40,904 nucleotides of DNA from a virus (lineage: Duplodnaviria; Heunggongvirae; Uroviricota; Caudoviricetes). The translations under genes were made by a program, and so were the position numbers. This document shows positions 20,618 through 24,094 of this stretch, in pieces. Position 1 is the first letter of the stretch. Each line of letters starts with the position of its first letter. The stretch is from positions 1-40,904 of IMG/VR virus record IMGVR_UViG_2687453163_000002; one strand, 5' to 3'. The notes beneath the pieces are model-generated. The model worked only from the letters and a program-made list of their open reading frames with translations, searched no databases and was not told the origin of the DNA.

Positions 20618-21511
20618 ACATGGCAGAGACATTAGAGAAAAACATGAGCGGATCATGCTCAGGTTTGACCGCGCCTATTCTCCACAGAAGGAAGTGCGCG
20701 AAAAGTGCATTGAAGCTACGAGGTTTGCTCGTGTCCCCGGAGGTCAATGGGAAGGAGCAACGGCGGCTGGAACTAAGCTTGATGAGCAGTTCGAGAAGTA
20801 TCCTAAGTTTGAAATCAATAAGGTAGCAACTGAACTTAACCGCATCATTGCAGAATACCGCAATAACAGAATCACTGTTAAGTTTCGTCCTGGTGACAGA
20901 GAGGCAAGCGAAGAGTTAGCCAATAAATTAAATGGTCTGTTCCGTGCTGACTACGAAGAAACTGATGGCGGTGAGGCTTGCGATAATGCATTTGACGACG
21001 CTGCTACTGGTGGTTTCGGTTGCTTCCGTTTGACGTCGATGCTGGTCAATGAATACGACCCCATGGACGATCGTCAGCGTATTGCTATTGAACCAATATA
21101 CGACCCGTCGCGCTCTGTGTGGTTTGACCCTGACGCTAAGAAGTACGACAAATCTGACGCGTTGTGGGCGTTCTGTATGTATTCGTTGTCACCTGAAAAA
21201 TATGAGGCTGAATACGGGAAGAAACCTCCTACTTCTCTGGATGTAACGTCTATGACCAGTTGGGAATATAACTGGTTTGGTGCAGATGTTATTTACATAG
21301 CGAAGTATTACGAAGTTCGTAAAGAGTCTGTTGACGTCATCAGTTATCGACATCCAATCACTGGAGAGATTGCAACATACGACAGTGATCAGGTTGAAGA
21401 TATTGAAGATGAACTGGCAATAGCTGGATTTCATGAAGTGGCAAGGCGCTCAGTGAAGCGCCGTCGTGTGTATGTATCCGTAGTGGATGGTGATGGTTTC
21501 TGGATTTGCCC

Positions 21512-22417
21512 CTATATTTCCAGACATCTGTTATCACTTAACCCATTACAAGCCCGCTGCCGCAGATATTCCCGTGGCGAGCGATAACCCAGCGCACTAT
21601 GCGGATGCCATTCGTTATAATGCTCGAACGCCTCTGCAAGGTTCTTTGCTGCCGTTAACCCGTCTGGTTTGGGCATGATACTGATGTAGTCACGCTTTAT
21701 CGTTTTCACGAAGCTCTCTGCTATTCCGTTACTCTCCGGACTACGCACCGCCGTGTTCTTCGGTTCAAGTCCCAACATCCGGGCGAACTGGCGTGTTTCA
21801 TTAGCCCGGTAGCATGAACCATTATCCGTCAGCCACTCCACTGGAGACGACGGAAGATCGTTGCCGAAGCGGCGTTCCACCGCTCCCAGCATGACGTCCT
21901 GTACTGTTTCACTGTTGAAGCCGCCGGTAGTCACCGCCCAGTGCAGTGCCTCACGATCACAGCAGTCCAGCGCGAACGTGACACGCAGTCTCTCTCCGTT
22001 ATCACAGCAGAACTCGAACCCGTCAGAGCACCATCGCTGATTGCTTTCTTTCACGGCCACTCTGCCTGTATGTGCCCGTTTCGATGGCGGTACAGCAGGT
22101 TTTCGCTCAAGCAACAGCGCATTCTGGCGCATGAGCCGGTAAACACGTTTGGCATTGATCGCAGGCATACCATCAAGTTCTGCCTGTCTGCGAAGCAGCG
22201 CCCATACCCGACGATAACCATACGTGGGCAGCTCTCCGATAACATGGTGTATACGGAGAAGCACATCCGTATCATCAGTGTGACGACTGCGGCGGCCATC
22301 CATCCAGTCATCGGTTCGTCTGAGAATGACGTGCAACTGCGCACGCGACACCCGGAGACAACGGCTGACTAAGCTTACTCCCCATCCCCGGGCAATAAGG
22401 GCGCGTGCGCTATCCAC
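21512..22417 (-). CDS. insD: IS2 transposase OrfB (InsD)
   Basis: 301-aa ORF with DDE-type integrase core, matching recalled IS2 InsD. Confidence 0.9.
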
Positions 22418-22740
22418 TTTTTTGCCCGTCCATATTCAACGGCTTCTTTGAGGAGTTCATTTTCCATCGTTTTCTTGCCGAGCAGGCGCTGGAGTTCTTT
22501 AATCTGCTTCATGGCGGCAGCAAGTTCAGAGGCAGGAACAACCTGTTCTCCGGCGGCCACAGCAGTAAGACTTCCTTCCTGGTATTGCTTACGCCAGAGA
22601 AATAACTGGCTGGCTGCTACACCATGTTGCCGGGCAACGAGGGAGACCGTCATCCCCGGTTCAAAGCTCTGCTGAACAATTGCGATCTTTTCCTGTGTGG
22701 TACGCCGTCTGCGTTTCTCCGGCCCTAAGACATCAATCAT
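22375..22740 (-). CDS. insC: IS2 OrfA (InsC), start at [13 protein letters not shown]
   Basis: HTH protein matching recalled IS2 InsC; overlaps insD in the -1 frame as expected for IS3-family frameshifting. Confidence 0.9.
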
Positions 22741-24094
22741 CTGTTCTCCAATGACTAGTCTAAAAACTAGTATTAAGACTATCACTTAAATAAGTGATAC
22801 TGGTTGTCTGGAGATTCAGGGGGCCAGTCTAGTTTCCTTGAGAAACCTCGACGTATTCCTGGTGAGCATATCCCCCTCATCCCGGTTTATGGAAAACGCT
22901 GGTTCATTGATGACATTGAGCGTGTCGAAGGGCACATTGCAAAAGCAATGGATCCACAGCGTTTGTATAACCTTCAGGTATCAATGCTGGCTGATACTGC
23001 AGCGCAAGACCCCGGTCAGATCCCTATAGTTGGCATGGAGCAAATTCGTGGACTTGAGAAGCACTGGGAGGCTCGCAACAAGAAACGACCAGCGTTCTTG
23101 CCGTTGCGCGAAGTGAGAGATAAATCTGGCAACATTATCGCTGGAGCTACCCCGGCAGGATATACACAGCCTGCGGTTATGAATCAGGCATTGGCTGCAT
23201 TACTACAGCAAACCAGTGCAGATATTCAGGAGGTTACAGGCGGCAGTCAGGCCATGCAGCAGATGCCAAGTAATATTGCTCAGGAAACGGTTAACAACTT
23301 GATGAACAGAGCAGATATGGCTTCGTTTATCTATCTGGACAATATGGCGAAAAGTCTTAAACGCGCTGGTGAAGTATGGCTGTCAATGGCGCGTGAAGTG
23401 TACGGTTCAGAACGTGAAGTGCGCATCGTTAACGAAGATGGAAGTGATGATATCGCTGTCCTGAGCGCACAGGTTGTTGACAGGCAAACAGGGGCTGTTG
23501 TTGCGTTAAATGACCTTTCTGTCGGTCGATACGATGTGACGGTTGATGTTGGACCAAGCTACACAGCACGACGTGATGCAACGGTTTCTGTACTGACAAA
23601 TGTCCTTAGCTCTATGCTTCCAACAGACCCAATGCGCCCGGCAATTCAGGGTATTATTCTGGACAATATCGATGGCGAAGGCCTTGATGACTTCAAAGAG
23701 TACAACCGAAACCAACTGCTGATATCTGGTATTGCAAAACCACGCAATGAGAAAGAGCAGCAGATTGTTCAACAGGCGCAAATGGCAGCACAAAGCCAGC
23801 CAAATCCTGAAATGGTTCTCGCTCAGGCGCAAATGGTAGCAGCGCAGGCAGAAGCGCAAAAAGCAACTAACGAAACTGCTCAAACTCAAATCAAAGCATT
23901 TACTGCCCAGCAGGATGCGATGGAGAGTCAGGCAAACACTGTCTATAAACTGGCTCAAGCCAGAAACATCGATGACAAAGCAGTGATGGAGGCAATACGC
24001 CTTCTGAAAGATGTCGCCGAGTCACAACAACAGCAATTCCAGTCACCACCACAGTCACCGGCAGACTTAATGCCGAGTTAACCAGGAGTAATCA

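Follow-up and report, generated by a model that had tools for sequence, protein, structure and literature searches.

The 40,904-nt stretch of DNA analysed here (IMG/VR record IMGVR_UViG_2687453163_000002, positions 1 to 40,904; hereafter the window) carries an SfX-type, P22-like prophage whose portal gene is split by a complete copy of the insertion sequence IS2, and we consider it very probable that a recent transposition of IS2 into that gene yielded a packaging-defective phage. Judged from locus offsets, the window corresponds to approximately CP012140.1:310215-351118, the chromosome of Shigella flexneri 4c strain 1205, which is in silico type X+ and a close relative of strain 2002017. The IS2 copy is 1331 bp long and occupies 21501..22831 on the minus strand, so that its transposase genes run antisense to the portal gene. 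It is bracketed by two copies of the pentanucleotide GTTTC, one on the left at 21496..21500 and one, likewise read from the sequence, on the right at 22832..22836, where the empty sites of L027, Sf6, HK620 and loci L001-L010 hold a single copy, identifying the pair as a 5-bp direct target site duplication. IS2 makes target repeats of 5 bp (ISfinder). When HK620 and vB_EcoP-683R2 are aligned with the window, the left-flank and right-flank alignments overlap by exactly 5 bp, and the insertion point falls between the codons for Phe294 and Leu295 (Sf6 gp3 numbering).

What is left of the portal gene is a 5' part on the plus strand at 20620..21500, which runs from the canonical ATG at 20620 (3 nt past the TerL stop) through Met13 at 20655 to the last intact codon, Phe294, and a 3' part at 22837..24081, also on the plus strand, from Leu295 to the stop codon. 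The N-terminal fragment continues for 28 codons into IS2 before a stop at 21587, the C-terminal fragment is without a proper start, and neither was called as a protein in the source record; exact-product look-ups of the 310-amino-acid (aa) truncated portal and of a 68-aa frameshifted N-terminal open reading frame (ORF) returned no match. Deleting 21501-22836 produces an open frame of 2091 nt and 696 aa. The original prediction that the two halves rejoin in frame after this removal therefore stands for the 2091-nt frame, but that frame starts at internal Met13 (20655), the canonical start being frameshifted. The rejoined protein is 100% identical to residues 13-708 of Sf6 gp3 (PDB 7sfs, E=0), matches the P22 portal at E=1.8e-93 and aligns to positions 2-594 of the 594 in Pfam PF16510 (P22_portal, 1e-178), placing it in the family over its full length; the expectation that the halves would align contiguously to a P22/Sf6-type portal was thus confirmed. 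At the nucleotide level none of the 2091 positions from Met13 to the stop differs from Sf6 gene 3 (L011, 1871-3961), and the same sequence runs uninterrupted in L027. Owing to the IS2 split and the out-of-frame start at 20620, the window has no uninterrupted portal ORF from the canonical start, and its portal is, as judged from the sequence, a disrupted gene and not a functional member of the family.

The element is a typical IS2. It is 99.7% identical over its full length to copies annotated as 'IS3-like element IS2 family transposase' in complete E. coli genomes, within the bounds of length (~1.3 kb) and nucleotide identity to the reference (at least 95%) that define IS2. Its 41-bp right inverted repeat (IRR; 21501..21541, minus strand) equals the published sequence at 41 of 41 bases (PMC3219604), while the left inverted repeat (IRL; 22790..22831, minus strand), taken as 42 bp after PMC3299598, has the terminal bases TAGACTGGCCCCC, confirmed in the window on the minus strand at 22831; the 41-bp and 42-bp termini pair as imperfect inverted repeats with one indel. 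Both transposase genes lie on the minus strand: orfA (insC; 22375..22740, 121 aa) encodes an HTH domain (Pfam HTH_Tnp_1, 2.4e-19), and orfB (insD; 21512..22417, 301 aa) encodes HTH_21 together with rve (1.1e-18) and rve_3 (1.8e-18), the DDE catalytic core. The two ORFs overlap in 0/-1 phase, with an A6G slippery heptamer at 22417..22423 on the minus strand (IS positions 409-415), a programmed -1 frameshift motif described in PMC3219604, and joining them by a conceptual -1 shift yields an OrfAB of 409 aa whose span is that of a RefSeq coding sequence annotated 'programmed frameshift'. In length, IRR, A6G site, rve/DDE and 5-bp duplication, the copy is like the IS2 of Escherichia coli and Shigella (IS3 family, IS2 group), and the original description of a complete 1331-bp element with both terminal repeats and insC/insD, flanked on each side by GTTTC, proved accurate throughout. 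Compared with the best E. coli copy there are only four base differences, namely TT for AA at IS2 positions 42-43, a change giving I95L in OrfB and one synonymous change; none of the four points to inactivation, and the copy looks fully functional. The TT, at window 22789-22790, is the inverted centre of a 20-bp near-palindrome, TATCACTTAAATAAGTGATA, which adjoins IRL in a region reported to take in the OrfA repressor binding site, and the exchange of AA for TT could be a quasipalindrome template-switch mutation.

A prophage copy with the empty site allows the insertion to be dated. Exact-protein look-up with the 431-aa ejection protein found L026 and L027, the latter with seven similar places besides. 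L027, a 41-kb contig of another S. flexneri assembly (GCA_028648335.1), matches window 18899-21500 and 22832-39790 at 100%, with 0 mismatches over 19,561 bp and a 5-bp overlap at the insertion site, while L026 and L039 (CP012140.1) reproduce window 11289-40904 at 100% identity, the IS2 copy among it, L026 alone accounting for 20235-40904. As an IS2-free prophage with a single GTTTC exists from which no substitution has since separated the occupied copy, the comparison strongly supports a very recent insertion, in agreement with the earlier proposal of recency. No junction-spanning match was found in 5426 complete E. coli genomes, and k-mers of the occupied junction had 0 matches in GTDB species representatives, IMG/VR and JGI metagenomes; the uninterrupted 696-aa portal, meanwhile, is present on 483 contigs annotated as S. 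flexneri. Absence of the junction from the scanned collections, coupled with an intact portal on so many contigs, marks the IS2 allele as a rare, young derivative.

That no other collection scanned holds the junction would also fit an assembly artefact, in which the assembler wrongly placed a multicopy IS2 in the portal gene, and IS2 is certainly repetitive enough, being present in 4059 of the 5426 complete E. coli genomes and at up to 41 places per genome. A misjoin, however, would not give an exact 5-bp target duplication at both true ends with the remainder matching the empty site base for base. The record is, moreover, a finished chromosome in which 46 of 52 homopolymer runs of 5 or more bases are as in relatives, an agreement that indicates good assembly quality, and we hold an artefact to be extremely improbable.

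IS2 is not the only lesion in this portal gene. At 20638..20642 on the plus strand, comparison with relatives reveals an A5 run, GAGAAAAACATG, instead of A6, GAGAAAAAACATG, a 1-bp deletion that shifts the canonical 708-aa portal frame after codon 7, the shifted frame ending at 20826. All 12 non-Shigella relatives compared, Sf6 and HK620 included, have A6, and ten contigs with an identical terminase protein all carry a 708-aa portal that starts 3 nt past the terminase stop. The A5 run is common to the empty-site copy L027 and the IS2-occupied L026 and L039, and must therefore predate IS2; as the portal is otherwise nucleotide-identical to Sf6 gene 3, it represents a young change in a gene known to be functional. 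Post-insertion decay and homopolymer sequencing error were both considered as sources of A5 and ruled out by L027, by the 483 contigs and by the homopolymer agreement. Loss of IS2 would accordingly yield, on this sequence, a 696-aa and not a 708-aa portal. In treating IS2 as the sole portal lesion, the original prediction overlooked this older deletion, through which the prophage may already have been portal-impaired.

The A5 allele opens a different account of the locus, in which the portal was already made defective by the change from A6 to A5 and IS2 hit a pseudogene neutrally during prophage decay in Shigella. We regard this as a genuine possibility, though one we lean away from. The order of events is compatible with it, A5 being older than IS2 in L026, L039 and L027 alike, and every one of the 12 non-Shigella relatives at the site, among them the functional phages Sf6 and HK620, retains A6 and a 708-aa portal. 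The 12 residues lost, on the other hand, lie outside the conserved domain: position 2 of the P22_portal profile corresponds to residue 2 of the 696-aa protein, and the P22 alignment starts there too. Translation from Met13 would have to make do with a weak, closely spaced Shine-Dalgarno-like GAGCGG upstream; nevertheless, 483 contigs hold the 696-aa allele, where its annotation is that of a normal portal protein, and this spread could be purely clonal. So young is the A5 change, in a gene otherwise identical to that of Sf6, that there is no sign of selection having tested it, and many other S. flexneri SfX-type prophages are visibly decayed by IS elements. Strain 2002017, a close relative, has yielded SfX particles on induction (PMC3306764; PMC5429569), which would likewise count against a dead portal should its prophage carry A5. 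Two bolder ideas, even when taken jointly, seem to us improbable: that the wide occurrence of A5 reflects a P22-type portal able to function from a non-canonical internal start with its first 12 residues missing, or that the IS2 hit was more than decay and was favoured by selection, permanently 'grounding' the serotype determinant (group 7,8) of the 4c lineage with excision, lysis and gtrX intact. The A5 allele nonetheless poses a small question, whether Sf6-type portals can dispense with their 12 N-terminal residues and the canonical start.

Our preferred explanation remains a recent IS2 transposition that cost the phage its ability to package DNA. IS2 is known to proceed from asymmetric cleavage at IRR to a figure-of-eight and then a minicircle, in which the two ends abut and create the strong promoter Pjunc, before both minicircle ends attack the target to leave an insertion flanked by direct repeats (PMC3299598, PMC3219604); this is copy-and-paste through a circle, and the donor copy stays in place (PMC3299598). 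We infer that the active-looking IS2 would have reached the portal gene by this copy-and-paste route of figure-of-eight, minicircle and insertion, duplicating GTTTC and splitting the ORF between Phe294 and Leu295, and that this locus would make no dodecameric portal. By analogy with P22 gene 1 mutants, the induced prophage would still be capable of excision, replication, cell lysis and the assembly of shells that lack a portal; DNA packaging would fail, with the result that no infectious or transducing particles would be released. Late genes downstream of the insertion would presumably still be expressed under Q antitermination, and the untouched gtrA, gtrB and gtrX would preserve the serotype determinant, which is in effect fixed in the chromosome. 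Since the functions for excision, replication and lysis appear intact, an induced cell would probably still die.

This sequence of events moves the block to a later step than originally predicted. The prophage had been thought unable to assemble procapsids, yet P22 without portal forms prohead-like shells, dead ends that cannot package DNA (PMC3185693), and its assembly kinetics in vivo are unchanged when the portal is absent (PMC5529062). Amber mutants of P22 gene 1 (portal) suffer the same portal loss within the same type of assembly and provide the model for the portal-less, dead-end shells expected here; they are point mutants studied experimentally in Salmonella, whereas we infer the phenotype of the window prophage. 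Several considerations weigh against the packaging-defect explanation. A5 may already have left the portal without function or poorly expressed, in which case IS2 would be a later hit and not the cause; portal might be provided in trans by another P22-like prophage elsewhere in the genome; and late-gene expression through IS2 is an assumption, the phenotype as a whole being predicted from sequence and analogy.

The insertion might alternatively serve as a reversible switch, in which a subpopulation of cells loses IS2 precisely and regains both the portal and the ability to produce phage. With both GTTTC copies unaltered and an open frame on rejoining, precise deletion from one copy to the other would restore the common allele to the base, but we think such a switch very unlikely. 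Repeats of 5 bp separated by 1.3 kb very rarely undergo recombination or replication slippage, which weighs against it, and no dedicated excision function is suggested by the sequence. Because a copy-and-paste element leaves its donor copy where it was (PMC3299598), transposase-mediated 'precise excision' is not expected either, and the premise of the PCR for precise excision that had been put forward is correspondingly weak.

The integrity of the other phage genes was audited by blastn against 12 relatives, and lengths were compared with Sf6, HK620 or prophage counterparts; approximately 10 kb in the early-left and immunity region, to which none of the loci retrieved was closely related, was judged by ORF presence only. 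Within recognised genes other than the portal, no frame-breaking indel common to all relatives was detected in the blastn comparison with the 12 relatives, save for one in ninA. There, a 1-bp deletion (CC to C) in codon 2 (window 11786-11790, at 11788) sets the prophage apart from 5 of 5 relatives covering the site, and is probably without consequence. The claim that the other genes look intact consequently holds for their lengths, which are as in Sf6 and HK620, and for their reading frames, with the exception of ninA. All 17 products tabulated are equal in length to their Sf6, HK620 or prophage counterparts: TerS (141 aa), TerL (470 aa), the scaffold (294 aa), the coat (423 aa), the gp4-like (160 aa), gp10-like (472 aa), gp14-like (151 aa), gp7-like (230 aa), gp20-like (431 aa) and gp16-like (665 aa) proteins, the needle (233 aa), the holin (107 aa), the lysozyme (158 aa), Rz (145 aa), Q (172 aa), O (299 aa) and P (478 aa, from the start homologous to HK620 P). 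The tailspike is 573 aa long from its first ATG, whereas gene calls in other genomes give it 570 aa, three codons fewer; an exact-product look-up of the 573-aa form gave no match. Truncation of the tailspike was ruled out, because its Sf101 homologue measures a comparable 580 aa and an identical 570-aa protein is annotated in many S. flexneri genomes. An A7 run at 17601-17607, where every relative aligning has A6 (10 relatives by alignment, and 5 by an exact-flank test), was likewise dismissed as a lesion in the DUF2560 gene: it lies upstream of that gene, inside an ORF of 35 codons that is unlikely to be a real gene.

The prophage that carries the disrupted gene extends from 145 to 39218 and is delimited by a perfect 64-bp attachment-site (att) direct repeat at 145-208 and 39155-39218. 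The left copy is overlapped by the tRNA-Thr(CGT) gene thrW at 115-190, placing integration at the site described in PMC3306764, and the prophage spans 39,010 bp, or 37,674 bp minus IS2 and one copy of the duplication. At one end lies int (205-1365), at the other the gtr cluster, in which gtrX (36311-37576, minus strand) is 99.8% identical to the SfX L05001 glucosyltransferase gene and the products of gtrA and gtrB were confirmed by Pfam; gtrX-gtrB-gtrA adjoin attR, and cluster and int together have the layout of an SfX-type prophage. From left to right the gene order is int; lambdoid early, replication, nin and lysis genes; a virion module of Sf6/HK620 type; an mnt-like gene; an HNH/AP2 ORF; the tailspike; and gtrX-gtrB-gtrA. 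The virion is P22-like, with Sf6_terminase, Terminase_3, P22_portal, P22_CoatProtein, P22_Tail-4, P22_gp7, gp16 and a Head_binding tailspike all present.

SfX itself is a short-tailed, thrW-integrating phage of 37,355 bp with headful packaging (PMC3636060), inducible from strain 2002017 (PMC3306764). The window prophage resembles SfX and the SHI-O island of S. flexneri 2002017 and NCCP 15744 in having gtrA-gtrB-gtrX by attP, integration at thrW and a P22-like virion, and it shares an Sf6-type terminase with SfX, its size without IS2 (37,674 bp) being close to the 37,355 bp of that phage. Whereas the SfX of 2002017 is inducible and infectious, the copy in the window has IS2 in its portal gene. 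CP012140.1 was the sole match to the exact 431-aa ejection protein among contigs >1 Mb, and the 2002017 copy therefore probably differs in part. In the literature consulted, gtrX is not discussed in PMC6424224, and 'SfX' strings in PMC4226921 are mostly locus tags.

A comparable insertion is known from Sf6, in which IS911, likewise an IS3-family element, is annotated within gene 54 (ninG) of a P22-like S. flexneri phage. In that case a non-essential nin gene was hit and the phage is viable, in contrast to the essential portal gene struck here by IS2. Among the S. flexneri loci with an exact GtrX (L015-L024) there are many independent IS-mediated truncations, affecting the tailspike, ejection proteins or whole head modules, and gtrA, gtrB and gtrX are kept in every case. 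Their retention amid phage decay is, at the level of sequence, consistent with selection for the serotype genes. IS insertions in Shigella prophages are commonplace, and IS2 in such a prophage is an already-known, ordinary kind of event, which does not challenge current understanding of IS2, portals or prophage decay. For S. flexneri 4c strain 1205 and its relatives, however ordinary the event, the SfX prophage is predicted to be unrecoverable as infectious phage, with the serotype-conversion genes intact, and the locus offers a cleanly dated case, with zero substitutions since insertion, of IS expansion in Shigella immobilising prophages.

Several further features of the prophage were noted. 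Its tail needle is the 233-aa HK620 type and not the 282-aa Sf6 type, showing neighbouring modules to be mosaic, and the identity of the portal with that of Sf6 amid such mosaic neighbours points to Sf6 and SfX-type phages having exchanged modules very recently. Genes for tRNA-Asn(GTT) and tRNA-Thr(TGT) lie downstream of Q at 15051-15206 and are annotated likewise in Sf6. Between the lysis genes and the DUF2560 gene, a 161-aa ORF at 17011-17496 has T5orf172/MUG113 (GIY-YIG-like) domains according to the L039 gene table; relatives have Rha, KilA-N, Tad2-like or trypsin-like genes at this position, identifying it as a variable 'moron' slot. On the minus strand at 34009-34551, between the mnt-like gene (33617-33910) and the tailspike, a free-standing, homing-endonuclease-like ORF combines HNH_3 and AP2 domains and, if read from its TTG start, overlaps the start of the tailspike; it is absent at that position in Sf101 and in the SfX-type copies L016 and L021, and similar HNH ORFs occur elsewhere in the related prophages L007, L008 and L030. 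Just beyond attR (39215-40904), IS600, which runs from ~39656 to the window end, cuts into what is left of another phage integrase, its C-terminal half (39215-39679, 154 aa). This half is a remnant of an earlier thrW-integrated element, and the same arrangement of integrase remnant and IS600 is found in L020 and L026.

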